Shown: positions 1 through 42,375 of the stretch, one piece after another | How the letters are laid out: every line of letters starts with the position of its first letter | How positions within the stretch are numbered: the first letter of the stretch is position 1 | DNA from: Escherichia phage rV5_ev147 | Sequence record: LR597647 | Strand: one strand, 5' to 3' | Length of the DNA stretch: 64,000 nucleotides | Translations under genes and position numbers: made by a program | Notes under the pieces: model-generated | The model's input: only the letters and a program-made list of their open reading frames with translations | Database searches by the model: none | Told to the model about the DNA's origin: nothing

Positions 1-258
1 TCGCTTCGCTCCCACACATGTTAACAGACCTTCATGTATGCACTTCTGTTATTGTGTGCACCAAGGAGGCCCGGCATCTCGCCCCTCGTAGGCGAGTGCC
101 AATGAAGGGCCGACACTACCTATAGTAAGTAATAAATTTAAAACATGGTACTTAGGATCTAGTATATTCTACATAAGTTAAGTATATGTACTTAGTACCA
201 TAAGTACTAGATCTTTTATTTTTTTTTATTATTTAGTTATTTTAGTTATATTCTTTAT

Positions 259-341
259 GTGTCCGTATCACGGACAGTTAGTGTCCGTATTACGGACAGA
301 TGTGTCCGCGTGACGGACAGTAGTGTCCGTATCACGGACAG
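259..341. repeat. Four tandem 19-bp palindromic sites (GTGTCCGTATCACGGACAG and variants) phased every 21-22 bp
   Basis: Copies start at 259, 281, 302, 323; half-sites TGTCCG/CGGACA; no T-tract after the stems, so operator-like rather than terminator. Confidence 0.8.
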
Positions 342-415
342 TTACTAACCTCTGTTCCAGAGTGAACATAAAACATACGAATCCTTATAGTACAGATATT
401 TAAGTTTTTACTGGT

Positions 416-766
416 CTAACCAGTTGTTGACATTCGAATAACTTCTTCTGGTGGCAAAACTTTGGAAAATGTGCATCTTTTACCTCTCCCTTGTGTGGAT
501 ATTTCAACCACTCCTGCACATTCTAAAGTTTTAACGCACGCTGCTGCTTTTGTTTTCTTTATCCCAATATCTGCTGCAATTTTCCTTGTGCTGGGCGTGA
601 AGCGTGAATTTCCTCCAAGCTTATACCAGTTGTGCAGGTAGCAGTATACGATCTTGTCATATAAGTCAAGAACAACAACCTCACCAGTTGTGTCATTCAA
701 AACTTTTGACATAGACAGTATTTCAAGGGGGACTTTAAGATATAGCAGCTTATCCCCATCTTTCAT
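416..766 (-). CDS. Putative helix-turn-helix DNA-binding protein
   Basis: ATG at 766 with AGGAG upstream; segment STRKIAADIGIKKTKAAACVKTLECAGVV resembles an HTH; lies next to the palindromic site array. Confidence 0.4.
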   Translation of the reverse strand: MKDGDKLLYLKVPLEILSMSKVLNDTTGEVVVLDLYDKIVYCYLHNWYKLGGNSRFTPSTRKIAADIGIKKTKAAACVKTLECAGVVEISTQGRGKRCTFSKVLPPEEVIRMSTTG

Positions 767-813
767 ATCTCCTGATTCTCCTTGTGTGGCAATTTTCTTT
801 AAAATAGCAGGGA

Positions 814-1368
814 TTACTCCACGCTGTCAATAGCAAGACTCATTGCAATACGGTATGCCTCTTCTAATGGTAAGAGTCTCCCCCACACATCCCAACCGAC
901 ATCAAACTGCCTGCCAAACAACTGCTGTGTGGTTCCGTGAGCATGACCGAACAGTTGGACCGATCCGTGAGGCTTTCTGTTCCACTTTGCAAACTGGTAA
1001 TGGCTCATACAGATCAAATTCTTGTTGTGGCGAAGCTCGTAATAATCTACAACCTCATGACCGAACTCTTTCATAATTCTGACAGTCGTCCTTGTGTCAT
1101 GGTTACCACGAACAAGAATAATATGTCCGTTCAACATATTTAGAACATCTGGGAGCAATTTGTTAATATTCTTATCATTAGTGCACGCAATATCTCCTAA
1201 GTGAAACACAGTGTCTGCAGGTGACACAACAGAGTTCCACTTGGTGATGATCCCCGCATTCATACTGTCAAGATTGTGATCATACTGAGATCTGTGTTTT
1301 TGACATGAGTCAAACTCCATGACCCGCTGGTGGAGAAAGTGTGTGTCGCTTGTTACAAAGTATTTCAT
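814..1368 (-). CDS. Calcineurin-like metallophosphoesterase (Ser/Thr phosphatase or polynucleotide 3'-phosphatase type)
   Basis: Start refined to ATG 1368 (MKYFVTSDTHF) with GAGGA SD; motifs DTHF, GDIACTND, GNHD typical of metallophosphoesterases. Confidence 0.65.
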   Translation of the reverse strand: MKYFVTSDTHFLHQRVMEFDSCQKHRSQYDHNLDSMNAGIITKWNSVVSPADTVFHLGDIACTNDKNINKLLPDVLNMLNGHIILVRGNHDTRTTVRIMKEFGHEVVDYYELRHNKNLICMSHYQFAKWNRKPHGSVQLFGHAHGTTQQLFGRQFDVGWDVWGRLLPLEEAYRIAMSLAIDSVE

Positions 1369-1375
1369 ACATTCC

Positions 1376-1786
1376 TCATTTAAGTTTAATGCAGTTTTTA
1401 AGCTGGCGTTCCATACGATCCACAACCCTGTCTGGAACATCATGAATGCTTTTACTACCATGGCGGTTTTCAACCACGATTACGGTATAACTATACCCAT
1501 GACTGATCGCCATGTCAATATATTCTTGCACATATTTTTCTTTTGTAAATGTATTACTTACCACGATACGGTCGTATCCCATACGCATCATATCTTCTAC
1601 GTTATCTTTGCACCATTTTGCTGCAAGTGTTACTTTACTTGCATCCCAGTTGTAATTTCCATCATCGTCGTACCAGAACATGTCGTTCTCAAAATGTGGA
1701 TACAGACCTTCTAAAGATAGCGCACTTGCCAGTGTTGATTTGCCAGACCCTGGTAGACCACGCACGATATATAGCATTTTAGACAT
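1376..1786 (-). CDS. P-loop kinase, polynucleotide-kinase-like
   Basis: Start refined to ATG 1786 (GGAGGA SD); Walker A GLPGSGKST near N-terminus; stop overlaps the SD of the phosphoesterase gene. Confidence 0.5.
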   Translation of the reverse strand: MSKMLYIVRGLPGSGKSTLASALSLEGLYPHFENDMFWYDDDGNYNWDASKVTLAAKWCKDNVEDMMRMGYDRIVVSNTFTKEKYVQEYIDMAISHGYSYTVIVVENRHGSKSIHDVPDRVVDRMERQLKNCIKLK

Positions 1787-1886
1787 AGTAATCCTCCGTT
1801 TTAATTTCAACGATAGTATACCTAACTGTTTTGTTAATTTCAAGTGTTGACACTAGGTTATTTGTGTGGCAGGATAGACTGACAAA

Positions 1887-2822
1887 ATGACAAATGAGGA
1901 ACGTATGATGAAGTATTTTAATGCAGACGACCTAGTTGACAAAGGTCTTGTAACCAGCAGATATCACCCAGACCTTGGGTTAAAGATCTATAAATATGCC
2001 AGAAAAGTATTCTACAACAACTTATGGCATTTGTCTCCTCGATTACTGGAGTGCCGAGGCATTGTTGTCGGTAATGAAGGAAATGTTGTGGCATGGCCCT
2101 TTACAAAAGTGTTTAACTTGGGAGAAAATTCCACCAACCTGCCTGACAATAAGCTTGTGACGGCGGTAGAGAAAAAGAACGGATTCCTTGGTGTGGTGTC
2201 ATCTCATAAAGGTGAACTATTGTTCTCAACAACCGGGTCTCTTGATTCTCCATATTGTAACCTTGCAAAGGAAACCATCCAGGAGCAATGTGGTAATTTA
2301 GATCTTATCAAGAAGGTTATGGGCAATGAAAATATGACATTCATGTTTGAAATTTGTCACCCCTCAGATCCGCATATTGTTCAGGAAGATCATGGCGCAT
2401 ATTTGATAGGTTGCAGATATAATGATTCTGGAATAATGCTACCAGAAGCAGCTTTAGATGGGATTGCCAAATACCTTGGTGCAAAACGTCCTCACACTGT
2501 GCGTGAAATTCCGTTCAGTTATGCAAAAGAATTAGCTGCAGAAACAAGAGGTGAAGGGTATATGATTCGTAAGCCTTACTACCCTTATGATCTGCAGCTG
2601 AAGATTAAGTCTCCATACTATCTGGCACGGAAGGCCGTAATGAGGGGTAAAGCTTGGAAGATTTGGGATGATGATATCTTTAAACGTGTTGACGAAGAGT
2701 TTTACGGCATGGTAAACTTCATTCGTAACAACTACACAGAGGATGTATGGAACTGCCTCCTGGAGCAGGAACGCCGTGAGATACTCGATTACTATTTCCA
2801 CAACGAGAACTATATGCAATGA
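1887..2822 (+). CDS. Putative RNA ligase (Rnl2-like nucleotidyltransferase)
   Basis: Candidate motif I EKKNGF, motif IV EGYMIRK, motif V LKIKS; divergent from the kinase/phosphoesterase pair. Confidence 0.45.
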   Translation: MTNEERMMKYFNADDLVDKGLVTSRYHPDLGLKIYKYARKVFYNNLWHLSPRLLECRGIVVGNEGNVVAWPFTKVFNLGENSTNLPDNKLVTAVEKKNGFLGVVSSHKGELLFSTTGSLDSPYCNLAKETIQEQCGNLDLIKKVMGNENMTFMFEICHPSDPHIVQEDHGAYLIGCRYNDSGIMLPEAALDGIAKYLGAKRPHTVREIPFSYAKELAAETRGEGYMIRKPYYPYDLQLKIKSPYYLARKAVMRGKAWKIWDDDIFKRVDEEFYGMVNFIRNNYTEDVWNCLLEQERREILDYYFHNENYMQ

Positions 2823-3169
2823 AGAAGTTGATTGTGTGGCTAGATGACTTGAGAGATCCGTCAAAGTACGGGCTCCAAGACGCTGTTTGGCTAAAGAATT
2901 CCTCCGAGTTTATAGATTTTATTAACGATAATAGAAAGCTCTACAGACGCGTTTCTGAGTGGCATATGGACAACGACCTTGGAGAGGTATTCGAAGGGTA
3001 CGATTGCCTATCTATGTTGGAGGAAAAATTTGTATTTGGTAAGCCTCCTGTAGTTGACAACGTGAAGATTTTCGTGCATACTTCTAACCCATCAGCGGCT
3101 CGTAAATTCATGCTTGCAGCTGACTCGTTTAAAAAGTTTGGAATAGAGATTAAACAAAACATCTACTGA
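2819..3169 (+). CDS. Hypothetical protein, first gene of the Sir2 operon
   Basis: ORF overlaps the upstream stop (ATGA); 9 bp before the Sir2 gene; no motif recognised. Confidence 0.45.
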   Translation: MKKLIVWLDDLRDPSKYGLQDAVWLKNSSEFIDFINDNRKLYRRVSEWHMDNDLGEVFEGYDCLSMLEEKFVFGKPPVVDNVKIFVHTSNPSAARKFMLAADSFKKFGIEIKQNIY

Positions 3170-3177
3170 GGACACTT

Positions 3178-3939
3178 ATGCGACGACTGATTATTATCTC
3201 CGGTGCTGGTTTGAGCGCTGAATCTGGTATTCCCACTTTCCGATCTGGTAGCACTGCAATGTGGGAGAATTTCAGCATCGATGAGGTGTGCAACATCCAC
3301 ACCTTTGCCAAGAACTACTATAAGGTGCATGACTTTTACAATGCACGTCGTGTAGCTTTAGGCAGTGTTGAGCCTAACCTTGCACATCTTCGGATCGCTG
3401 AGTGGTATTCCCGCTGGTCTGGTCGTGTGATCAACCTTACCACCAATGTAGATGATTTGCTGGAGCGTGCTGGTGTAAAACATGAAGATATTTTACATGT
3501 CCACGGGTATTTGCCAGAAATAGTCTATGAGGACGATGAAGGAAGTGACGTCATTAAGGACATTGGATACTCTGAGGTAGACGCAGGAAAGTATACCTGG
3601 GTTAAGCCTAATGTGGTGTTCTTCGGAGAAGTAGCTCCGAAGTATACAGACATGTATGACCTGTTGACTTCTCTTACGAGCAATGATATGGTTATCCTTG
3701 TAGGGTGCTCCAACACAGTTATCAATTTTAACTGGGAGCTATTCCCTGCCTGCAATAAGGGAACCAAACTACTGATCGTTAATAAATACGACTCACAGCA
3801 TCTAGAGGAGAATGGCATTTCACGTAGTGATATTTACCAGTATGAGGATCGTGGCATCCCAGTTTGGTTTAACGGTGCGGTTGATGCCTTCTCTGATAAA
3901 ACATTCATTGAGACTGTAGAAAACTTTATGGAACTTTAA
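3178..3939 (+). CDS. SIR2-family NAD-dependent deacylase / ADP-ribosyltransferase-like protein
   Basis: Canonical sirtuin motifs GAGLSAESGIPTFRS, TTNVDDL, HVHG; no CxxC zinc module seen. Confidence 0.7.
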   Translation: MRRLIIISGAGLSAESGIPTFRSGSTAMWENFSIDEVCNIHTFAKNYYKVHDFYNARRVALGSVEPNLAHLRIAEWYSRWSGRVINLTTNVDDLLERAGVKHEDILHVHGYLPEIVYEDDEGSDVIKDIGYSEVDAGKYTWVKPNVVFFGEVAPKYTDMYDLLTSLTSNDMVILVGCSNTVINFNWELFPACNKGTKLLIVNKYDSQHLEENGISRSDIYQYEDRGIPVWFNGAVDAFSDKTFIETVENFMEL

Positions 3940-3952
3940 AAGGAGACCTTTA

Positions 3953-4666
3953 ATGCTGAATACTAAATTAATTGACAACCTGGAAAAACTATCCCAACCT
4001 GAAAACTACCTTTGGTCTGCCAACTGGGTGGAAAACTGGAACCGTGTGGCAGCTAAAGTGAAAAAATCATACACACCATTCGAATTACAGCTTAGCTTCA
4101 TTGAGGAAGAGTTCAATGAAGTTTTGGAAGAGCTGGAGAAAGGTGATGGTGGAGATCACCTGCTAAAGGAGGCCTGCGATCTTCACGTTGTCACAAGTTA
4201 TGCAGCTTATCTTGTTAATGACAATCACGAAAAGTGGTCAAACCTGTTTGATAATCCACGAGGTCTTAAGTTCAAGATCGGTGAGTTCTATGATACACTG
4301 ATCGCTGCGAAAAACACCTCTAAGCAAAGAGCATCCGCTTACCGCTTAGCAGAGTTGTCAACAGCTTTGCTGTTCCAGCTTCGCGGCGATGTGTGCGGGA
4401 TGATGCGTAAGGTTCTCAAATCGAATGACAGCAAGTTTGCACGGGTCAACCATCTACGGTATTCACACGGTGCCAGTGCAGATATGCCTGCTGAACAACT
4501 CATCGAGTTGGAGATTAAAGATCTTGAGCGACGCTTTGATGGTCGATATGAAGGTTTTGTTGCTAAGGAAGAATTCTACAACGGTAATAAAGTTATCATA
4601 TTCCTTGACAGTAAAGGTAAGATCATGAAGCCTTCGAGCTTCAAGGATGTAACAGAGTATATTTAA
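3953..4666 (+). CDS. Putative MazG-like nucleotide pyrophosphohydrolase
   Basis: EEEFNEVLEELEK...EACDLH resembles the EExxE...ExxD MazG motif; 14 bp after Sir2. Confidence 0.35.
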   Translation: MLNTKLIDNLEKLSQPENYLWSANWVENWNRVAAKVKKSYTPFELQLSFIEEEFNEVLEELEKGDGGDHLLKEACDLHVVTSYAAYLVNDNHEKWSNLFDNPRGLKFKIGEFYDTLIAAKNTSKQRASAYRLAELSTALLFQLRGDVCGMMRKVLKSNDSKFARVNHLRYSHGASADMPAEQLIELEIKDLERRFDGRYEGFVAKEEFYNGNKVIIFLDSKGKIMKPSSFKDVTEYI

Positions 4667-4672
4667 CAACAT

Positions 4673-4698
4673 AGCCGGGATTACCCGGCTTTACTTGT
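4673..4698 (+). terminator. Rho-independent terminator after the Sir2 operon
   Basis: AGCCGGG-atta-CCCGGCT stem-loop followed by TTTACTTGTT. Confidence 0.5.
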
Positions 4699-4699
4699 T

Positions 4700-5038
4700 G
4701 TGGAAAGTATGCAAGTGAGGCAGATAGTTATGTACAAGCACTCTAGAGATCTTGAAAACGATGCTGTGTTTGGGGATCAGATGAAAGAGTTGGTTAAACT
4801 CATAGGCAGGATAGAGGATAAGTTTGACACTAAGATCTACATCGACAGCAAAGTATTCAACCACAAAATATGGACAAATCTGTGTGTTGGACTACATGGA
4901 GATAAAGATGCGGTAAATTTAGTTGTAATTAAGTTCATAGTGTGGCAGAATAAAACTATAAATTATTACGATCCACATCTGCTTGTTTACCCGATAAAAG
5001 ACCTATTAGATAAGGAGGACTGCAATGCCGTTATTTAA
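4700..5038 (+). CDS. Hypothetical protein
   Basis: ORF in dense co-directional array; start not refined. Confidence 0.4.
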   Translation: MESMQVRQIVMYKHSRDLENDAVFGDQMKELVKLIGRIEDKFDTKIYIDSKVFNHKIWTNLCVGLHGDKDAVNLVVIKFIVWQNKTINYYDPHLLVYPIKDLLDKEDCNAVI

Positions 5039-5294
5039 TCTTGCTAAACCTGTAGAAGCACACCAGTTTGACGGAAGCTCTTCATCAGTATCTGATCTGC
5101 AACGGTGGATTGATACAGGTGTGTTTACATCGTCACCTGTTCGGACCAGAGATCTTCGTCGTATGTGTGAGCTTGTAGAGCCGTTTGGTAACCTAGTCTT
5201 GCACCAGGGTGATTGGCTTGTTGATTTTATGGGGGACTGGTTGGTAATGAGTAAAGAAGAGATGTTTAAAATTTTTAAGGAAGAGGTAGAGTAA
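5025..5294 (+). CDS. Hypothetical protein
   Basis: ORF with GGAGGA-like SD upstream; no motif recognised. Confidence 0.4.
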   Translation: MPLFNLAKPVEAHQFDGSSSSVSDLQRWIDTGVFTSSPVRTRDLRRMCELVEPFGNLVLHQGDWLVDFMGDWLVMSKEEMFKIFKEEVE

Positions 5295-6577
5295 TGCATC
5301 AAATCAAAACAACACTGTACGCACTGAACAAAGATGGCAGCTACCAACAGTGGAAAGTATTCACGGATGGTGATAAGGTTATCGTAGAGTTTGGCAAGCT
5401 TGATGGTAAACTGCAATACAAAGAGACGATCTGCACACCTAAGAACGTGGGTCGCGCCAATGAGACTACAGCTGAGCAACAGGCCGAGCTGGAAGCGATC
5501 AGTAAGTGGGAAAAACAGGTCCGACTAGGGTACGTGGAGAGTATGGAAGATTGTGAGCAAGGTGTTGATCTTTTACCAATGTTAGTGCATGACTACCTGA
5601 AGCGTGGCAAGGCACTTAAATTACCTTGCTGGATCTTGCGTAAGTTAGATGGCCTTCGTCTACTTGTTGTTTTCCAGAATGGTGAGCCTAAATTTATTTC
5701 CCGTGGTAATAAGTCCTACCCTATTCAAGGAAAGCTTCTGGAGCAACTTCGCTCTTTCCACCTAACCACCGGGATTAAACAGCTCGACGGAGAGCTCTAT
5801 ATTCATGGTCTTCCTCTGCAGAAAATAGTGTCTCTTGCTAAACGGTGGCGCACACAGGAAGAAATTCAGGCCGAGATCGATAAAGACTACAAGGCAGATA
5901 AAAAACGCCGTCAGGCTGCGATTAAGGCAGGTTTAGCAACATACAAAAACTTCAACAAGATGGACATTCCTGTTGATGTTGAGCCTGTTCGTGATGATTT
6001 GCGTTACGGAGGGTACTGCAGCTACGACTTAGAGTATCATATTTTCGATATTCCTAGCGATAAGGTGTGGTGGGATCCTGAAACAGAGTCTGGACGCTGT
6101 AAGGATCTTATGGAGGCAAATGGTGCTATTGCTTCTTTGATGCTTGATCATATTAAGGTTGTTGATGCAGAGCTTGCATACACAGTTGATCGGTGCGAAG
6201 AGTCTGTTGGTATATTTATGTCTGAGGGATATGAAGGTACCATTATGCGTAACTTCTGTGGTAAATATGAGTATGGTCAGCGAACATCTGAAGCATTGAA
6301 ATGGAAAAAGTTCAACGACGCAGAGGTGAAAGTTATTGACGTTGAGAAAGATAAGAATGATGAAGGTGTTCTTATCTGTGTTGACAAGGAAGGTGTTGTT
6401 GTTAAAATGAAGATGAAAGGCACGCACGAGGAGCGTAGCTATGACAGGATGCAGGAAATGATCGGCAAGTTTGTCACCTTCAAATATCAAGCAAGGACAG
6501 AAGACAACAACTACCAATTCCCTGTCGGTATCTGCGTCCGAAATGTTAACCCAGACACTTGGGAGGTGCTGGAATGA
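5294..6577 (+). CDS. ATP-dependent DNA ligase
   Basis: Motif I KLDGLR, motif IV-like EGTIMRN, motif V-like KWKKF; ATGA overlap with upstream ORF. Confidence 0.55.
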   Translation: MHQIKTTLYALNKDGSYQQWKVFTDGDKVIVEFGKLDGKLQYKETICTPKNVGRANETTAEQQAELEAISKWEKQVRLGYVESMEDCEQGVDLLPMLVHDYLKRGKALKLPCWILRKLDGLRLLVVFQNGEPKFISRGNKSYPIQGKLLEQLRSFHLTTGIKQLDGELYIHGLPLQKIVSLAKRWRTQEEIQAEIDKDYKADKKRRQAAIKAGLATYKNFNKMDIPVDVEPVRDDLRYGGYCSYDLEYHIFDIPSDKVWWDPETESGRCKDLMEANGAIASLMLDHIKVVDAELAYTVDRCEESVGIFMSEGYEGTIMRNFCGKYEYGQRTSEALKWKKFNDAEVKVIDVEKDKNDEGVLICVDKEGVVVKMKMKGTHEERSYDRMQEMIGKFVTFKYQARTEDNNYQFPVGICVRNVNPDTWEVLE

Positions 6578-6701
6578 TGTAGGGAGGTTCAGTAGGTAAC
6601 GGTAGCCAATTGAATGATGGTTTTTCAATTGGCACCTACATAACCACACTATGCAGTGTTGTTGATCGGGTTAGTTATGAGTAAACTGGAGAGTATGAAA
6701 A

Positions 6702-7190
6702 ATGAAACTTGATAAAAATGTTCAACGAAAAGCTTTCTTGGATATGATCGCATATTCGGAAGGCACAGATAATGGTAGACAACCTACCAAGGATCGGGGG
6801 TACGATGTCATAGTCGGAGGCAAGCTGTTCAGCGATTACAGCAAGCATCCCGGTGTTTACGTTAAGCTAAATGCTAAGCTTACCTCCTCCGCTGCTGGGC
6901 GTTACCAGGTTTTGGAGAAGTTTGCTAAACACTACATGAAACAGTTAGGATTACCAGATTTTGGCCCTGACAGTCAGGACAAGATTGCGTTGCAACTGAT
7001 CCGTGAGTGCAAGGCTCTCGCCGACATTGATGAAGGGCGTATTCATCAGGCCATTTATAAATGCCGCAGCCGCTGGGCAAGCTTCCCACCACCGCCAGGG
7101 GCTGGAAAGCTGTACAATCAGCGAGCAGAAAGTATAGACAAGATGCTGGAGATCTTTAAGAAGGCAGGTGGAGTTGTTACAGATGAGTAA
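6702..7190 (+). CDS. Lysozyme, lambda R-type lytic transglycosylase
   Basis: QRKAFLDMIAYSEGTDNGRQPTKDRGYDVIVGG and C-terminal KEAGG closely match lambda R as recalled. Confidence 0.85.
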   Translation: MKLDKNVQRKAFLDMIAYSEGTDNGRQPTKDRGYDVIVGGKLFSDYSKHPGVYVKLNAKLTSSAAGRYQVLEKFAKHYMKQLGLPDFGPDSQDKIALQLIRECKALADIDEGRIHQAIYKCRSRWASFPPPPGAGKLYNQRAESIDKMLEIFKKAGGVVTDE

Positions 7191-7866
7191 CGGGATTGAC
7201 TGGTGGAGTGTCTTTAGATACGATACAGGCACTGGAAGGTTGTTTTGGAAGTCCCCACCAAAAAACAAACCTCAACTGATGGGAAAGGAGGCTGGATGTA
7301 CTAACATGGACGGGTACAGGGATATAATCTATCGCGGCGTGCATTACTACAGGCATAGATTGGTGTGGGAGATGCATTATGGACCAATTCCAGAAGGGTA
7401 CGAAGTTGATCACATAAAGCCACTTTTCTATTCCGATGGTGTTGCTGATGACAGGATAGAAAACCTACAACTGTTAACACCAGAAGAAAACGCAAAAAAG
7501 GCGGCAGATGACGGATGCCTGGCACGCAAGATACCTAAATCTAACACTGGACACTTGGGTGTATATTTTCATGCTAGAACTGGAAGGTATGCTGCTTTTG
7601 GTAAGGTAGGTCATTACTATAAGAAAGACCTAGGAGAATACGATACCTTAGAAGAGGCCCTTGCTGCTCAAAAGTCTTTTGAAAGTGGCACGTTTGTCAG
7701 GGAATATCGTGGACAGCCTTTAGGGAGGGATAAATCTAGAGGTGTCAGATTTGAAGCAGATAGGGGCAAATGGAAAGTAACTTTCAGAGGAAAAACGCTA
7801 GGCAGGTTTGACACCAAAGAGTCTGCTGAAGCGTGTTACGCAAAGGCTCTTGCTGAAAGATTGTAA
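7183..7866 (+). CDS. HNH homing endonuclease with AP2-like DNA-binding domain
   Basis: Start refined to ATG 7183; HNH region GYEVDHIKPL...ENLQLLTPEEN; overlaps the lysozyme stop. Confidence 0.6.
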   Translation: MSNGIDWWSVFRYDTGTGRLFWKSPPKNKPQLMGKEAGCTNMDGYRDIIYRGVHYYRHRLVWEMHYGPIPEGYEVDHIKPLFYSDGVADDRIENLQLLTPEENAKKAADDGCLARKIPKSNTGHLGVYFHARTGRYAAFGKVGHYYKKDLGEYDTLEEALAAQKSFESGTFVREYRGQPLGRDKSRGVRFEADRGKWKVTFRGKTLGRFDTKESAEACYAKALAERL

Positions 7867-8150: not shown

Positions 8151-8615
8151 GTGGAAGACGGACGTTTAATGAAGTCTGAACGCAGGCTTATTGTGCAACT
8201 GATCCCAGAAACAGCTTGGTATAATAACCTCCGAAACGCTGTAAAGAAGAGTGAGTGGGATAAGATCCGCAAGAAGTGCTATAGAGAAGCCAACTACACC
8301 TGTGAGGTGTGCGGCGGTAAAGGCAGCAAACACCCAGTGGAGTGTCATGAACTTTACACTTTCGAAGAGGGAGTGATCCGGCTTGTCGGACTGATAGCGT
8401 TGTGCCCAGATTGTCACACATCTGTGCATCCTGGGTTAGCAAATATCCGTGGAAAGTATGCTCAGGCAGTTAGTCAGTTGGCTAAGGTGAATAAGATCAC
8501 CAAGGGTATGGCAGAGGCGTATTACCGAGACTGCTTTGCAGAGTGGCGTGAGCTTAGTAAAGTTCCAGAATGGAAGACTGACTTTTCGTGGATAGAGGGT
8601 TACCTTGATGGCTAA
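8151..8615 (+). CDS. Putative HNH-type zinc-finger nuclease
   Basis: CEVCGG...HPVECHEL...CPDCH arrangement of Cys/His pairs. Confidence 0.35.
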   Translation: MEDGRLMKSERRLIVQLIPETAWYNNLRNAVKKSEWDKIRKKCYREANYTCEVCGGKGSKHPVECHELYTFEEGVIRLVGLIALCPDCHTSVHPGLANIRGKYAQAVSQLAKVNKITKGMAEAYYRDCFAEWRELSKVPEWKTDFSWIEGYLDG

Positions 8616-37791: not shown

Positions 37792-38118
37792 ATGAGAATG
37801 CCAATCACTGTGAAAGAGCTAAATGAACGTGATGCAGGTGGTCTATGGCCTGCACGAAAAATCCGCTACGTCTATATGAAAGAGAATCTTGAACATCTTG
37901 ATCAACAGATCAAGGTCGGTGATATTTTCGAGGTCTTCTATTCCAATCGTCGCAACTGGGAAACCATTCAGCCTTCTGGTTTTGTTCTTGCCAAACTTGA
38001 CACTGGAGAAGTGATTATTCCTGGGTTGGATATTGTCTTCAAAATTATCCAGGAGTGGGATCCGGATAAGATTAGATATGAAGAGTTATTCGGTGAAGGT
38101 ATTATCAAACCTGTGTGA
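37792..38118 (+). CDS. Hypothetical protein
   Basis: Start refined to ATG 37792 downstream of the terminator. Confidence 0.4.
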   Translation: MRMPITVKELNERDAGGLWPARKIRYVYMKENLEHLDQQIKVGDIFEVFYSNRRNWETIQPSGFVLAKLDTGEVIIPGLDIVFKIIQEWDPDKIRYEELFGEGIIKPV

Positions 38119-38126
38119 GGTGGATT

Positions 38127-38426
38127 ATGTCTACAAAGGCGGCTAAATACTCCTATATGCCATCAACCTCTGCAGAGGTAGACTTTAGTTTCGATGTGTT
38201 TCCACTGTTTGAGGTGGTTCTGGCATACCCAACAATACTATCTACTCCTGAATCACTTGTACCTGTTAAGTTGCAGAACGCTATGCATTCCATGCACTAC
38301 AACAACAAATGTAGGCACAGATGGTGTCAGGACGAGGAAAAAGATTTGGATAGTTTGAGAGATTTTGACAGTCACCTTTTGACACCTTTCAGCTACTCCA
38401 ACCTTGATAAGCCCTCGTGGGTATAG
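38127..38426 (+). CDS. Hypothetical protein
   Basis: Start refined to ATG 38127 after GAGGTGG. Confidence 0.4.
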   Translation: MSTKAAKYSYMPSTSAEVDFSFDVFPLFEVVLAYPTILSTPESLVPVKLQNAMHSMHYNNKCRHRWCQDEEKDLDSLRDFDSHLLTPFSYSNLDKPSWV

Positions 38427-38450
38427 CAAAATATCAAATTTAAGACACCT

Positions 38451-38479
38451 AGGACGCTCTGTGGCGTCCTTTTCTTTAT
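38451..38479 (+). terminator. Rho-independent terminator
   Basis: AGGACGC-tctgtg-GCGTCCT followed by TTTCTTTAT. Confidence 0.55.
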
Positions 38480-38786
38480 CTGGTGCACGATTGCATACCT
38501 TGGGTAGTTAATCTCATTACAGAGCGTTTAAGAGCTCCCTACAAACAACTCCATATTTCGAGCGTAGCGAGAACGCACGTCCGTTTTGACCCAAATCACC
38601 ATACGCTCGGATTTTAACCAAACCCTCGCGGCGTTTCTGTTGACACATTACCGATCCAGTGATAGTATCCACACATAGTTTGTAGAATATGGAGTACACA
38701 ATGAGAACATTGTCCGAAGTTTTAGTGGTGATCCTGATGATCATTACGTCCATAGCGGCTGTTGCCGGAATACTCACGGGTGGAAC

Positions 38787-38999
38787 ATGATCAACACACA
38801 TGCATCTGAAGAGACATCCGAAGGAGTGACCATCTGTCCCTTGGCCGAGCCGGGGAAAGAGGAAAACTTCGATTCTGAAGATTCTCCATCTCCGTCCCAG
38901 GTAGACCCTGAGGCTGATGACCTGACGTGGGAGGACATCGTAGACATCTGGTTCTCTATTATGCCTGAGCACGAAGAGTTCAGAGGTGGTAGACTATGA
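38787..38999 (+). CDS. Hypothetical acidic protein
   Basis: 70-aa ORF preceded by a 29-codon hydrophobic ORF at 38700-38789. Confidence 0.3.
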   Translation: MINTHASEETSEGVTICPLAEPGKEENFDSEDSPSPSQVDPEADDLTWEDIVDIWFSIMPEHEEFRGGRL

Positions 39000-39120
39000 A
39001 GCACCGAGCCCACACCGGTTCCTCATGCTAAAGCATGGCCTGAAGAGGCAAACGTGTATAATTCCTGTGCATTAGAACGTATAAAACCCTGTTCACACTT
39101 TCATTCCCAGAGGAGATTTT

Positions 39121-39336
39121 ATGAAGATAGAGATATTTGGTGGAGCTGACAACACTCGTGGCCTGATTTACCTTGAATTCGATGAATCATACCTGCCAGA
39201 GGTGTTAAATATAGACTCTGTTGCTGAGGCTTTGGGAGTAAACCCTAAAGAACTCCACTCTTGTGCTGAGATCGATGGTTGGGAAGAGACCATGAACATT
39301 GATTTCAGTGAAGTAGAGGATGAACCGCTGGACTGA
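39121..39336 (+). CDS. Hypothetical small acidic protein
   Basis: MKIEIFGG start, acidic tail; last + strand gene before the non-coding region. Confidence 0.4.
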   Translation: MKIEIFGGADNTRGLIYLEFDESYLPEVLNIDSVAEALGVNPKELHSCAEIDGWEETMNIDFSEVEDEPLD

Positions 39337-39463
39337 CACACAATTAGCTGCCCGGCTAAAGTGCTGGAAGCACCTATAACACATCTTTCAACTAAATTTC
39401 CTACCACCACAATCACTTACCTCCCACACATGACTGTTTGCTTGTTTAGTGAGCAGTCATGCC

Positions 39464-39491
39464 TTGACATTCTTGCCTATCCTGATAAAAT
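39464..39491 (+). promoter_or_regulatory. Sigma70-type promoter with extended -10 and overlapping 8-bp inverted repeat
   Basis: TTGACA (39464-39469), 16-bp spacer, TGaTAAAAT; CATGACTG...CAGTCATG palindrome just upstream; no ORF follows. Confidence 0.45.
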
Positions 39492-39497
39492 TAAGTT

Positions 39498-39775
39498 CTT
39501 CTCTTTTCTTTTACCGAGTAATTCGGGTTTTCTGTTCTCTTCGGTTTGAAGGGGTATAGAGATACACCTGAGTGAACAGGGTGAACAACCGAACCATTAG
39601 CTATGGCATTAGCATGGCGAAGCGGACGGGTGACGAAAGAGGGGCCGGAGGACACCAGTCACTGCCATATGATATATGGGTGATAACCTGAAGAGTCTGA
39701 ATAAGTGTTTAAGTACCAGTCAGAGGAAAAGGTGAATGGTAGCCGAAGGGGGGGAGGGGGGTTTCTTGTATCTTT
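39498..39775 (+). ncRNA. Candidate non-coding RNA ending in a G-rich tract
   Basis: About 280 nt downstream of a good promoter with no ORF; local hairpin CCGAGtaatTCGG; ends GGGGGGGAGGGGGGG + T-run. Confidence 0.25.
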
Positions 39776-40806
39776 AATTTGTATATTATGTATACACTTG
39801 TAAACCAATCTAATCTGAATCTGTTTACCACACAAAGCGGATAGAGACAAATATTGCCTATTAAACTTGAATTATTTATAGAAAATACCACAACACCCCT
39901 TAAGTCTTTGATTTTACACACAAATCCTACAGATATTCAACCTCCATATTTAACATACTTGTAACATATTCCATACTCTACCTGTCTGATCAATTTCCCC
40001 AACTACATTCTCATATTTTCCCTGTCTGTACTACCCCTGCCCCGCCGGGAGTCCCGTCATATCTGGCTTTCCAGCAAATATCACACCCACAAATATCATT
40101 GCCTGAAGAGGGTTTCATCCCATAATACCTGCCTTACCTGAAGAGCGCTTCATACACCACGTAAATTTTTTAATTGACCTCCCCCTGCCCCGCCGGAGAG
40201 GTTGGCTTTTCCCACACAGACCTGAAGAGTCAGCCAGAAATATCTGAATAGGCCCAATTCTACCACGATTTTGACCTGACCTACAGGGAGGCCCGAAGGG
40301 TCTAGCTTTCAGCTAGAGTCCTTGCAGGACCTACAGGAGCGCTGCCAGGCGGACGGAATGGGAATACTTCTCATTCTTATAACAATTCTCAAATATCGAG
40401 GCAGTGAGAGAAATTAATAGGCCAGGCCGTTCACACAGTGGCACAACATTTGCAACCTATTTTGTGTGGATGAATGAGAATACCTATCATTGTGAGAACT
40501 GTTATCATTACGGGCAATTTAACATAATACCCATTATGCGCACCACTGGCGATACATACAAGGATTGATAACATGAGTTACAGTTTACGCATATAACAAT
40601 CATATTTCTTACTATTTGTGTGGGATATAGTTAGCAGCCAATAGATTAGATATTGACCTGCGGACTTCCAACCGTCTAGACGTCTAAACGCCCACACAAC
40701 AAGGATTATACATACATTACTGAATGTAAACAGGACCGCAAAAATGCTACCATACCAGTTTGTAAATTTTTCATGCAGCACTTGACAAAGAGGAGGAAAA
40801 CTTGTC

Positions 40807-40852
40807 TGACATAATGGTGACATAACTGACACGATTGACATAATTGACATGC
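40807..40852. repeat. Five tandem TGACA(T/C)(A/G) boxes at about 10-bp phasing
   Basis: TGACATAA at 40807, 40818, 40836 and variants at 40827, 40845. Confidence 0.7.
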
Positions 40853-40936
40853 CTGACTGTTCACGCTCTCATTATTCCCGCCCTTACTATTCACGCCCTT
40901 TACTGCTTACATTCTTGATAGTCTACATGCTTAATG

Positions 40937-40992
40937 GTTTACATGACTAATAGTTTACATAGCTAACTGTTTACGCATAAACTGTTTACACA
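40937..40992. repeat. Four GTTTAC(A/G) iteron-like repeats at 15-16 bp spacing
   Basis: GTTTACATG 40937, GTTTACATA 40953, GTTTACGCA 40969, GTTTACACA 40984. Confidence 0.7.
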
Positions 40993-41002
40993 GATATGAT
41001 AA

Positions 41003-41302
41003 GCCATGCCATTCGTTTGCATGATAACAATAACGATCAACAACAATAAAGACTGAAATGATAACGTTGTTGATTTGACTGACTAACAATTAACAGGCTA
41101 ATAATCTATGACATAATATAAAAGCAGGGCAACTATTAGCAGATCTATAGTTGCCTTGCTTGTTATGTCATGATTAACTAAATACAAGGCAACTATGATC
41201 TGATTAATAGTTTGCAGACAAACTATCACGGGGGTGATGGTTACTGCTTTTATATTATGTCGCGACTCCGTCGCGCCATGCCATTCGTTTGCATAGTTGC
41301 CT
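41003..41302. repeat. Composite repeat locus: 20-bp direct repeat, 18-bp inverted repeat and GGCAACTAT palindromes
   Basis: GCCATGCCATTCGTTTGCAT at 41003 and 41275; GACATAATATAAAAGCAG (41110) with exact reverse complement at 41244; GGCAACTAT/ATAGTTGCC palindrome at 41128-41155. Confidence 0.75.
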
Positions 41303-41955
41303 TATTGTTACAGATAAAATAATTGTATTGTTAATTATTTCTTATCTTTCTATTAGTCATCTAATGATTCCAGTTAGTATAGTAACGTACAGTAAACATT
41401 AGACGACTAAAGATTTCTCTGATTATGATAACTTGCCGTGACAATTTCAGACTGTTTACGAAAAATGTTGACACCTGAGCTGATTTATGTTATGCAATTT
41501 AAACGAATAATTATTTTATGCAGGTATTGACTATTCTGTTATTCTATGGTCGGAATAAATACTTAGCAGGCTATAGAATGGTGAGCGTACGTAAATTCTG
41601 AGATCTGTCGGCTATAGTTATACTCGATTTTTCACGTAGAACACGCTTTTTGGTTTGTGTAAGTGTATGACTTATAAAGATTTTTAGTTGTTGACAAGAT
41701 ATTGAAGATGTGCATCAGGTTAAATTTTGTGCAATAGCTGCATTACGTGCAATTTTGGAAGGAAAACGGGTAAAAATAGCACCGCTACCACACAATGAAA
41801 GGTTATGCAATAGTTATTTTACATGTATATTTGTACAGTGTGTGGGATTGATGGCTCGTCAATTATTCCACTTGCCAGGTAGGGCCGTTTATGGTAGGGA
41901 GGAAGAGCAGACAAAAAGAAAGGGACCTAAGCCCCTTGATAATTCAGTTAAAAAA

Positions 41956-42375
41956 TTATAATGATTCGTATATTTCAAAAATCCGATTTGCCAGGTCGTT
42001 ACGGTACCGGAATTTTTCATCACGTTTGATCATAAGATCTTTATAGCCGTACTCTTTAAGCACTTCATTAACTTTATGGCGGCACACCTTCATATTATCC
42101 TGAGCGTCACCAATAAACCTGTTGCTATGGTGCATGGCTTTAATTTCTTCTTCCAGGACCAGGGCAACTATGCGGACCGGATCAAGCTGATAGGCGGTAA
42201 CATCCATGCGGCATTGTAAACGGCTTTTTACGTCTGCCACCGGATATACTGCAACCTCTTCCCCGTCAACATTGACAATAATTAGTTTACCATCGATTTC
42301 GAATCCTTTCGCCGCCGGACCGTGACAAAAAGCGTTATCAAAGCTATATGCCGGATTATTAGATTTAATGTTCAT
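41956..42375 (-). CDS. Hypothetical protein
   Basis: 139-aa ORF with minus-strand promoter 42424-42452 and SD upstream. Confidence 0.45.
   Translation of the reverse strand: MNIKSNNPAYSFDNAFCHGPAAKGFEIDGKLIIVNVDGEEVAVYPVADVKSRLQCRMDVTAYQLDPVRIVALVLEEEIKAMHHSNRFIGDAQDNMKVCRHKVNEVLKEYGYKDLMIKRDEKFRYRNDLANRIFEIYESL

Follow-up and report, generated by a model that had tools for sequence, protein, structure and literature searches.

We analyzed a candidate RNA-repair cassette in a stretch of 64,000 nucleotides from Escherichia phage rV5_ev147 (LR597647), referred to below as the window. As the first-pass annotation had reported, three open reading frames (ORFs) are present at 814-1368 (minus strand), 1376-1786 (minus strand) and 1887-2822 (plus strand), encoding a metallophosphoesterase (MPE) of 184 aa, a P-loop polynucleotide-kinase-like protein of 136 aa that contains a kinase domain only, and a predicted ATP-dependent RNA ligase of the Rnl1 family. 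The locus in this phage comprises six genes, with a two-gene kinase-MPE operon divergent from a four-gene operon encoding the ligase, a cREC (cyclic-phosphate-processing receiver-like) domain protein, a sirtuin and a MazG-like protein. Bases 1-7000 of the window are 100% identical to positions 64001-71000 of Escherichia phage rV5_ev156 (LR694165.1). Another 121 phage records, almost all of them Vequintavirus, match these bases at 90-99% identity.

The kinase gene, with its GLPGSGKST motif, lies directly upstream of the MPE gene with a gap of 7 nt, and the pair diverges from the ligase across about 100-118 bp, in agreement with the arrangement initially described. The MPE gene has a GAGGA ribosome-binding site that shares bases with the stop codon (TGA) of the kinase gene, and a strong site (GGAGG) precedes the kinase ATG at 1786, a layout that reads as a translationally coupled two-gene operon. 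The divergent intergenic control region (1787-1904) separating the two operons contains, as consensus matches only, a candidate sigma-70-like site on the minus strand (TTGAAA-17-TATACT, 1843->1815) and, on the plus strand, TTGACA at about 1848 followed by a weak -10 element. The ligase probably starts at ATG 1905 or 1908 rather than at 1887, because a GAGGA ribosome-binding site is found there, homologues begin there and GenBank annotates 1905; the protein has 305 aa from 1905, within an ORF of 311 aa open from 1887. The end of the ligase gene (2822) and the start of the cREC gene (2819) share a 4-nt start-stop overlap, and the plus-strand operon ends in a bidirectional intrinsic-terminator-like hairpin at 4673-4690 (AGCCGGG-ATTA-CCCGGCT; 7 pairs, 6 of them G-C, with a T-rich tail on either strand).

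The ligase matched Pfam PF09511 (RNA_lig_T4_1) with an E-value of 6.3e-15 and 56.1 bits (cut-off 28.3) over profile positions 1-227 of 227, and phrog_562 with an E-value of 7.7e-67. Because a single-sequence search of the PDB returned nothing useful, a profile was built from 37 homologues (alignment A1), which retrieved T4 Rnl1 (2c5u, 9do4; E 3.4e-13) across the whole nucleotidyltransferase domain, with the alignment ending at about residue 250 of 374. Counting residues from the ORF start at 1887, R57, K74, F76, K96-K-N98-G99, F154-E155, E223-G224 and K239-x-K241 were invariant in the 37 homologues, and the profile alignment pairs these with R54, K75, F77, K99/G102, E159, E227/G228 and K240/K242 of T4 Rnl1. 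Nucleotidyltransferase motifs I (KxxG), III, IV and V are all kept, with K96 as the predicted lysine nucleophile. In T4 Rnl1, residues R54, K75, F77 and K119 are reportedly essential, Rnl1-specific and outside the shared motifs, as concluded from mutagenesis in the Shuman laboratory.

The AlphaFold model of the ligase (predicted local distance difference test, pLDDT, 91) had as its best fold matches in Foldseek Rnl3, T4 Rnl1 and fungal Trl1 ligase (E about 1e-11, template-modelling (TM) scores of 0.60-0.64), all of them ligases of tRNA or single-stranded RNA, with a TM score of about 0.62 to Rnl1 versus 0.39 to Rnl2. Structures of T4 Rnl2 ranked 25th or lower (TM 0.38-0.40, E 2e-6 to 8e-5) and the Rnl2 model PF09414 did not match at E<=0.01, which together rule out the Rnl2 identity; the Rnl2-like motifs described in the first-pass annotation are instead of Rnl1 type. 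The alternative identities that it had named, DNA ligase or capping enzyme, were likewise ruled out, with DNA ligases ranking much lower (E about 3e-5 or weaker, TM<=0.41). A bona fide ATP-dependent DNA ligase is encoded by a separate gene at 5294-6577, 2.5 kb downstream of the cassette. Profile and predicted fold agree in assigning the protein as an Rnl1-type RNA ligase and the predicted sealing enzyme of the cassette.

The kinase matched AAA_33 (2.4e-10), phrog_2071 (1.6e-57) and phrog_505 'polynucleotide kinase' (7e-10), and belongs to a very large family, whose members of roughly 130 aa fall into at least 7,989 clusters. The single-sequence PDB search matched the P-loop only, so that here too a profile was needed; its best full-length matches were Pnkp1, PSTK, T4 Pnk and CthPnk (E 4e-5 to 2e-3). 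The GLPGSGKST sequence occupies aa 10-18 (nt 1733-1759), and the invariant positions are the P-loop (G10xxG13xG15K16S17T18), D35, N78-T79, E106-N107 and H109, with R108 near-invariant. In the profile alignment D35 falls on D35 of T4 Pnk, the general base. Substrate binding in T4 Pnk involves Arg38 and Thr86, and its lid arginine is Arg126; T79 of the phage kinase (SNT) aligns to T86 (SDT), and R108 in the ENRHG motif, outside the HMM alignment, is a plausible candidate for the lid arginine. The predicted structure (pLDDT 83) had TM scores of 0.70-0.77 to T4 Pnk (1ly1/2ia5), CthPnk (4jst), Pnkp1 (4xrp) and PSTK, versus 0.45-0.60 to small-molecule kinases acting on nucleosides, sugars or adenylate. 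Its structural neighbors in BFVD were mostly annotated Pnk/PseT, several of them fused to phosphatase or ligase domains. The kinase may also resemble the N4BP2-type polynucleotide kinase. Sequence and model thus fit the polynucleotide 5'-kinase clade of T4 Pnk, CthPnk and Pnkp1, and the protein is predicted to be a 5'-OH RNA kinase. A C-terminal HAD 3'-phosphatase (DxDxT) was not found, the 136 aa being wholly taken up by the kinase domain, and the GenBank name '3'-phosphatase, 5'-polynucleotide kinase', often given to this kinase-only protein, is therefore an over-annotation.

The MPE scored above the gathering cut-offs of Pfam PF12850 (Metallophos_2) and PF00149 (Metallophos) and matched phrog_547 'phosphoesterase' (5e-51). 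Its five binuclear-metal motifs (D8-T-H10, G58-D59, G88-N89-H90-D91, H123 and G141-H142-A-H144) are invariant or nearly so across 36 homologues, which upholds the calcineurin-like assignment made at the outset. The HMM family searches that the first-pass annotation had recommended all found their families, namely phrog_505/AAA_33 for the kinase, PF12850/PF00149 for the MPE and PF09511 for the RNA ligase. The sole significant solved relative of the MPE was Aquifex aq_1665 (1xm7; E 7e-11), and no lambda-phosphatase or CthPnkp chain was among its PDB matches at E<=1. The lambda-phosphatase-like/PPP branch carries the signatures GDxHG, GDxVDRG and GNHE; those of the MPE read SDTHF, LGDI and GNHD. 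Judged by its sequence the enzyme appears catalytically competent, in a branch with no known substrate, and it is predicted to heal RNA 3' ends by removing the 2',3'-cyclic phosphate or 3'-phosphate.

To place the cassette in a wider context, we surveyed 80 IMG/VR loci containing a ligase homologue (36-88% identity), in which six-frame ORFs were scanned with HMMs built from alignments A1-A3 and linkage was scored within 10 kb. The kinase was detected near the ligase in 74 of the 80 loci and the MPE in 62, with both present in 59, while sirtuin and cREC genes occurred in 11 and 10 loci, respectively. The kinase, MPE and ligase genes were mostly adjacent or overlapping and co-directional, in the order MPE-LIG-KIN or KIN-LIG-MPE. 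The widespread core is this trio, and the sirtuin and cREC are lineage-restricted additions. In a second sample, of 80 kinase-centred loci, the MPE was near the kinase in 49 (no more than 100 bp away in 25), an Rnl1-like ligase in 23, an Rnl2-like ligase in 27 and either RNA ligase in 43. The kinase-MPE pair thus also travels with Rnl2-like ligases. In unrelated metagenomic phage contigs, a conserved protein of 414-417 aa that had no Pfam match is encoded directly after the kinase-MPE pair (L004 7082-8326; L005-L007 7121-8374), with a Nudix gene a few genes upstream.

The cassette genes were also found fused. In 12 of the 80 ligase-centred loci kinase and ligase lie within a single ORF, the phage form joining AAA_33 and RNA_lig_T4_1 in one protein of 421-432 aa (in locus L057, AAA_33 at 16-115 and RNA_lig_T4_1 at 184-367; similar in L044). 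No substitute 3'-phosphoesterase was recognized by Pfam beside these two fusions, whose neighbors are proteins of unknown function, a GIY-YIG protein and an Rnl2-like ligase. The ligase had few cellular homologues, and these were found in fusion proteins: Cardiobacteriaceae encode a kinase-ligase fusion (AAA_33 + RNA_lig_T4_1) followed by an MPE gene, and Leptolyngbyaceae chromosomes (L174-L199) encode AAA_33, Metallophos and RNA_lig_T4_1 in one protein of roughly 710-770 aa. In Leptolyngbya sp. PCC 7375 an RtcB gene is located 1.6 kb downstream of the triple fusion (L182 6546-8861, 10466-11647), with a gene for a Pol-beta-type nucleotidyltransferase between them. Contigs resembling Klebsiella phage KP12 carry a rearranged one-strand block, MPE..LIG-cREC-KIN-Sir2-DNA ligase.

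As an alternative to RNA repair, the kinase and MPE could clean 5'-OH/3'-phosphate DNA breaks, made by host nucleases or arising during replication and recombination, for sealing by the DNA ligase at 5294-6577. T4 Pnkp also acts on DNA, 43 of the 80 ligase-centred loci have a DNA ligase no more than 10 kb from the RNA ligase, and the best NCBIfam match of the MPE, although weak and far under the cut-off (E 2e-4), was PdeM, a ligase-associated enzyme of the DNA-damage response. Set against this, a DNA ligase occurred in four of the 80 kinase-centred loci, as compared with the 43 that had an RNA ligase, the fusions in our samples join an Rnl1-type domain and never a DNA ligase, and the sealing enzyme of the cassette is clearly of the RNA-ligase clade. 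We consider such a DNA end-processing role very unlikely. A function of the ligase mainly in tail-fibre attachment, as for T4 gp63 (which is Rnl1), was also considered, since phrog_562 and several GenBank records bear the name 'RNA ligase and tail fiber protein attachment catalyst'. This name goes back to T4 gp63, the gene lies among nucleic-acid enzymes and not among tail genes, its homologues are fused to the kinase in other phages and present in cyanobacterial chromosomes, and the catalytic ligase residues are invariant; the proposal is almost certainly wrong. In further records the ligase is named 'hypothetical' or 'tail attachment protein'.

The three genes are supported, from sequence, models and linkage, as a split heal-and-seal cassette that would be analogous to T4 Pnkp + Rnl1 and to fused bacterial Pnkp. 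For the heal-and-seal set proposed in the first-pass annotation, family, fold, catalytic residues, synteny and fusions bear out the combination of kinase, phosphatase and ligase, while the three-gene extent does not hold for this phage, in which the locus continues into three more plus-strand genes. The cREC protein (2819-3169) matched PF20274 (4.5e-15) and phrog_1479 (4.7e-35) and has acidic residues in LDD (aa 8-10) and MDND (aa 50-53); the predicted role of its family has been discussed previously (PMC7824862, PMC9503650). The sirtuin (Sir2, phage clade; 3178-3939) matched PF02146 (3e-27) and phrog_2162 (9e-110). In a reading of its sequence, the NAD-binding motif GAGxS..GIPxFR and the HG motif are kept. 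Its cysteines number only three, none of them in a CxxC pair, so that the usual zinc-binding module appears to be missing. The MazG-like nucleotide pyrophosphohydrolase-like protein (3953-4666), encoded by the final gene of the plus-strand operon, matched phrog_671 (5.4e-22) and no Pfam family; a MazG-superfamily gene is listed in the phage V5 neighborhood (PMC9503650). All Sir2-bearing loci were large rV5/Mydo-like contigs, and the cREC, sirtuin and MazG-like genes are accessory and confined to rV5/Mydo-like phages. Their probable role is to extend the clean-up to more kinds of damaged end or to handle NAD/ADP-ribose by-products.

Two further explanations involve these accessory genes. In the first, the MPE, cREC, sirtuin, MazG-like protein and kinase would degrade or modify immune messengers such as cyclic nucleotides and ADP-ribose derivatives, with the ligase a bystander. 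The cREC, sirtuin and MazG families have been treated mainly in the contexts of NAD/ADP-ribose and nucleotide signals (PMC7824862, PMC9503650), calcineurin-like phosphodiesterases have been suggested to hydrolyze cyclic nucleotides (PMC7824862), and the kinase gave weak PADLOC matches to CARF-associated proteins (E 2e-5). The PADLOC scan of the six locus proteins found no meaningful defence-system membership. Counter-defence of this kind leaves unexplained both the kinase-ligase and kinase-MPE-ligase fusions and the near-obligate linkage to the ligase in loci without cREC, Sir2 or MazG, and we judge it to be highly improbable.

In the second, put forward by Iyer et al. in 2022 explicitly for the phages V5 and Mydo (PMC9503650), the sirtuin and cREC would be the core of a Trl1/Tpt1-like NAD+ route. 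In their model, cREC (or the MPE) turns the 2',3'-cyclic phosphate into a 2'-phosphate by ring opening, joining of the ends follows, the sirtuin uses NAD+ to take off the 2'-phosphate as ADP-ribose-1'',2''-cyclic phosphate, functionally replacing KptA/Tpt1, and by-products are cleaned by MazG-like or phosphoesterase proteins. Contiguity of the ligase, cREC and Sir2 genes, with the ligase/cREC overlap, is in line with this route, as are the recurrence of the linkage in KP12-like phages, where the kinase gene separates cREC from Sir2, the presence of kinase, MPE and ligase in all 11 sirtuin-bearing loci of our sample, and the place of fungal Trl1 ligase domains among the top structural matches of the ligase. 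On the other side stand the low frequencies of sirtuin and cREC in the ligase loci compared with that of kinase and MPE together; because most ligase loci have neither, the three-gene core evidently works without them. Pfam and NCBIfam searches of the six locus proteins matched no 2H cyclic phosphodiesterase (CPD) or KptA/Tpt1 domain, and we know of no sirtuin with 2'-phosphotransferase activity. The activity of cREC is also uncharacterized (PMC9503650). We regard a sirtuin- and cREC-centred core as unlikely.

From the genes present, their family membership, intact catalytic motifs, conserved linkage and fusions, together with the predicted folds, we infer all activities of the cassette, its RNA substrate and its role against anticodon nucleases, and we consider it likely that the cassette is a phage heal-and-seal system for RNA, most likely tRNA. 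An independent published computational reading also arrived at RNA repair (PMC9503650). In the mechanism that we propose, tRNA cut by host or competitor ribonucleases would end in a 2',3'-cyclic phosphate on one side of the break and a 5'-OH on the other; the 136-aa kinase would phosphorylate the 5'-OH and the binuclear MPE would strip the cyclic or 3'-terminal phosphate to yield a 3'-OH. The ligase, adenylylated on K96, would then transfer AMP to the 5'-phosphate and seal the break. Because most loci carry only kinase, MPE and ligase, these three are probably sufficient for repair.

No tRNA gene was found inside the window; six annotated tRNA genes are clustered 2.1-2.9 kb upstream of the window start (LR694165.1), and tRNA genes were present in the fetched flanks of 37 of 59 scanned loci. 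Within the rV5 tRNA cluster (Pro, Met, Thr, Ser, Tyr, Arg), ARAGORN called a 98-nt 'tRNA-???' with a four-base anticodon that is unannotated in GenBank (L001 305-403, corresponding to LR694165.1 61305-61403, some 2.6 kb before the window start), with the same call in the related contig L010. In addition, tmRNA genes and suppressor-type tRNAs (CTA or TTA) were found within 10 kb in several metagenomic loci that carry the cassette (L049, L057, L062, L064, L066, L069, L071, L074 and L079), which hints at stop-codon-recoded phages.

Several observations weigh against repair of tRNA by these proteins. The MPE belongs to the uncharacterized aq_1665-like subfamily and not to the lambda-phosphatase/CthPnkp type that heals RNA 3' ends. 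The profile matches of the kinase to solved Pnks are modest (E 1e-5 to 1e-3) and it has no equivalent of Arg38 of T4 Pnk, this position being W38 here and W/F in the family. In the ligase, the position of Lys119 of T4 Rnl1 is taken by Thr116, within an invariant STTG motif, and about 65 residues (4 helices) follow motif V, as compared with about 120 in T4 Rnl1, in which the C-terminal domain confers tRNA specificity. The ligase score against the NCBIfam RnlA equivalog TIGR02308 was 39.3 bits, under the cut-off of 242, and the T4 C-terminal domain was not recognizable in its sequence, so that it is not a full-length equivalent of T4 RnlA. The proximity of tRNA genes to the cassette is suggestive, as a frequency without a baseline. 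The literature searched (rV5/Vequintavirus with RNA ligase or Pnk) contained no biochemical or genetic data on these proteins. E. coli is still protected from the Vequintavirinae of the BASEL collection by retron Eco2, a defence that nicks the acceptor stems of tRNAs (PMC12916289); since these phages remain restricted by a tRNA-targeting defence, protection by the cassette is at best selective.

Beyond the heal-and-seal system itself, we put forward two linked readings, which we hold jointly and as doubtful. The kinase of about 130 aa and the aq_1665-type MPE may constitute an uncharacterized, portable RNA end-healing pair, very common in phages and partnered with either an Rnl1- or an Rnl2-like ligase. 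In rV5-like phages, the cysteine-poor sirtuin and cREC may carry out NAD+-dependent removal of the 2'-phosphate as a non-homologous replacement of Tpt1/KptA, as hypothesized before (PMC9503650), which, if true, would extend the sirtuin fold to a new enzymatic activity.

Defences that cleave tRNA are a growing anti-phage class that includes PrrC, RloC, PARIS, retron-associated nucleases and Cas13a, and to our knowledge T4 Pnkp + Rnl1 is the sole experimentally understood phage repair answer to them. The cassette would be a second solution of different structure, in which a minimal kinase is combined with a metallophosphoesterase and a short Rnl1-type ligase. As rV5-like phages are used in phage therapy and in BASEL-type collections, there is practical value in knowing which defences it neutralizes.

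The locus is real and had been largely correctly read in the first-pass annotation, and as a prediction the system was known before. The split layout, presented there as a variant worth confirming, is not new, as the same neighborhood in 'Escherichia phage V5' has been read as RNA repair (PMC9503650). Linkages between cREC and RNA ligase were described by Iyer et al. in 2021 (PMC7824862), and RNA ligase, polynucleotide kinase and phosphoesterase are annotated at this locus in many GenBank records. Our additions are modest and consist of the trio as the core, the association of the kinase-MPE pair with Rnl2-like ligases, the fusions, and the corrected family label and start codon of the ligase; the value now lies in biochemistry rather than in discovery.

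Other observations concern the public records and the rest of the window. Names are inconsistent for the MPE as well, which carries a 'MutT/nudix' note in Phage 203. Eighteen GenBank records labelled 'Campylobacter phage', 16 of them with C. jejuni as host, match window bases 1-7000, with 95.5% identity along the full 7,000 bases for Campylobacter phage D1; such matches to an E. coli Vequintavirus region look like a host or label problem. Just past the DNA ligase, genes annotated as homing endonucleases (7183-7866 and 8151-8615) flank the endolysin region, and one of the two is missing in some relatives such as Phage 203. The cumulative GC skew reaches its maximum at about 38-40 kb and declines afterwards (window about 38000-42000), which would fit a coding-strand switch.

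Among known systems, the fungal and plant Trl1 (ligase-kinase-CPD) with Tpt1 likewise combines kinase, phosphoesterase and ligase, and its ligase domain is a top structural match of the phage ligase (6n0t, 9qw7, 8rbj; E about 1e-11 to 1e-10). In the phage an NAD+-using enzyme, the sirtuin, is genetically linked, much as Tpt1 is linked functionally. In the phage, however, the genes are split and the six proteins lack the 2H and KptA/Tpt1 domains.

With Clostridium thermocellum CthPnkp/Hen1 and the Pnkp1-Rnl-Hen1 system the cassette shares the domain set of P-loop kinase, binuclear MPE and ATP-dependent ligase. The kinase domains of CthPnk and Pnkp1 are among the best structural matches of the phage kinase, and the fused kinase-Metallophos-Rnl1-like protein of Leptolyngbyaceae shows that a single-chain form of this set exists. 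The phage system differs in its three split genes, in an MPE that is aq_1665-like rather than lambda-phosphatase-like and in its Rnl1-type ligase; a Hen1 methyltransferase was sought in the six locus proteins only, and none is encoded there.

The T4 system of Pnkp (PseT) and Rnl1 (gp63), which counters PrrC, follows the same logic of 5'-kinase, 3' healing and sealing by an Rnl1-family enzyme from separate genes. Its ligase is homologous in the nucleotidyltransferase domain, and the fold of the phage kinase is closest to the kinase domain of T4 Pnk (TM 0.75). In contrast to T4 Pnkp, the kinase here stands alone at 136 aa without a HAD DxDxT phosphatase, and 3' healing is assigned to a separate MPE. 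The ligase likewise departs from T4 Rnl1, with no C-terminal tRNA-specificity domain recognizable in sequence, a threonine at the Lys119 position and a score below the RnlA equivalog cut-off.

A further counterpart is the 'type 2' sirtuin-centred RNA-repair neighborhood described by Iyer, Burroughs, Anantharaman & Aravind (2022, Viruses 14:1977, PMC9503650), with Escherichia phage V5 and Proteus phage Mydo as prototypes. It shares with the present locus the phage lineage, the gene set (T4-like tRNA ligase, cREC, nucleotide kinase, sirtuin, MazG-superfamily protein and calcineurin-like phosphoesterase) and a reading as RNA-end clean-up and ligation, and all six genes lie here within 814-4666, placing the locus in this type. 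The two accounts differ in emphasis: theirs is centred on the sirtuin, with the phosphoesterase 'occasional', whereas in our sample the core is the trio of kinase, MPE and ligase.

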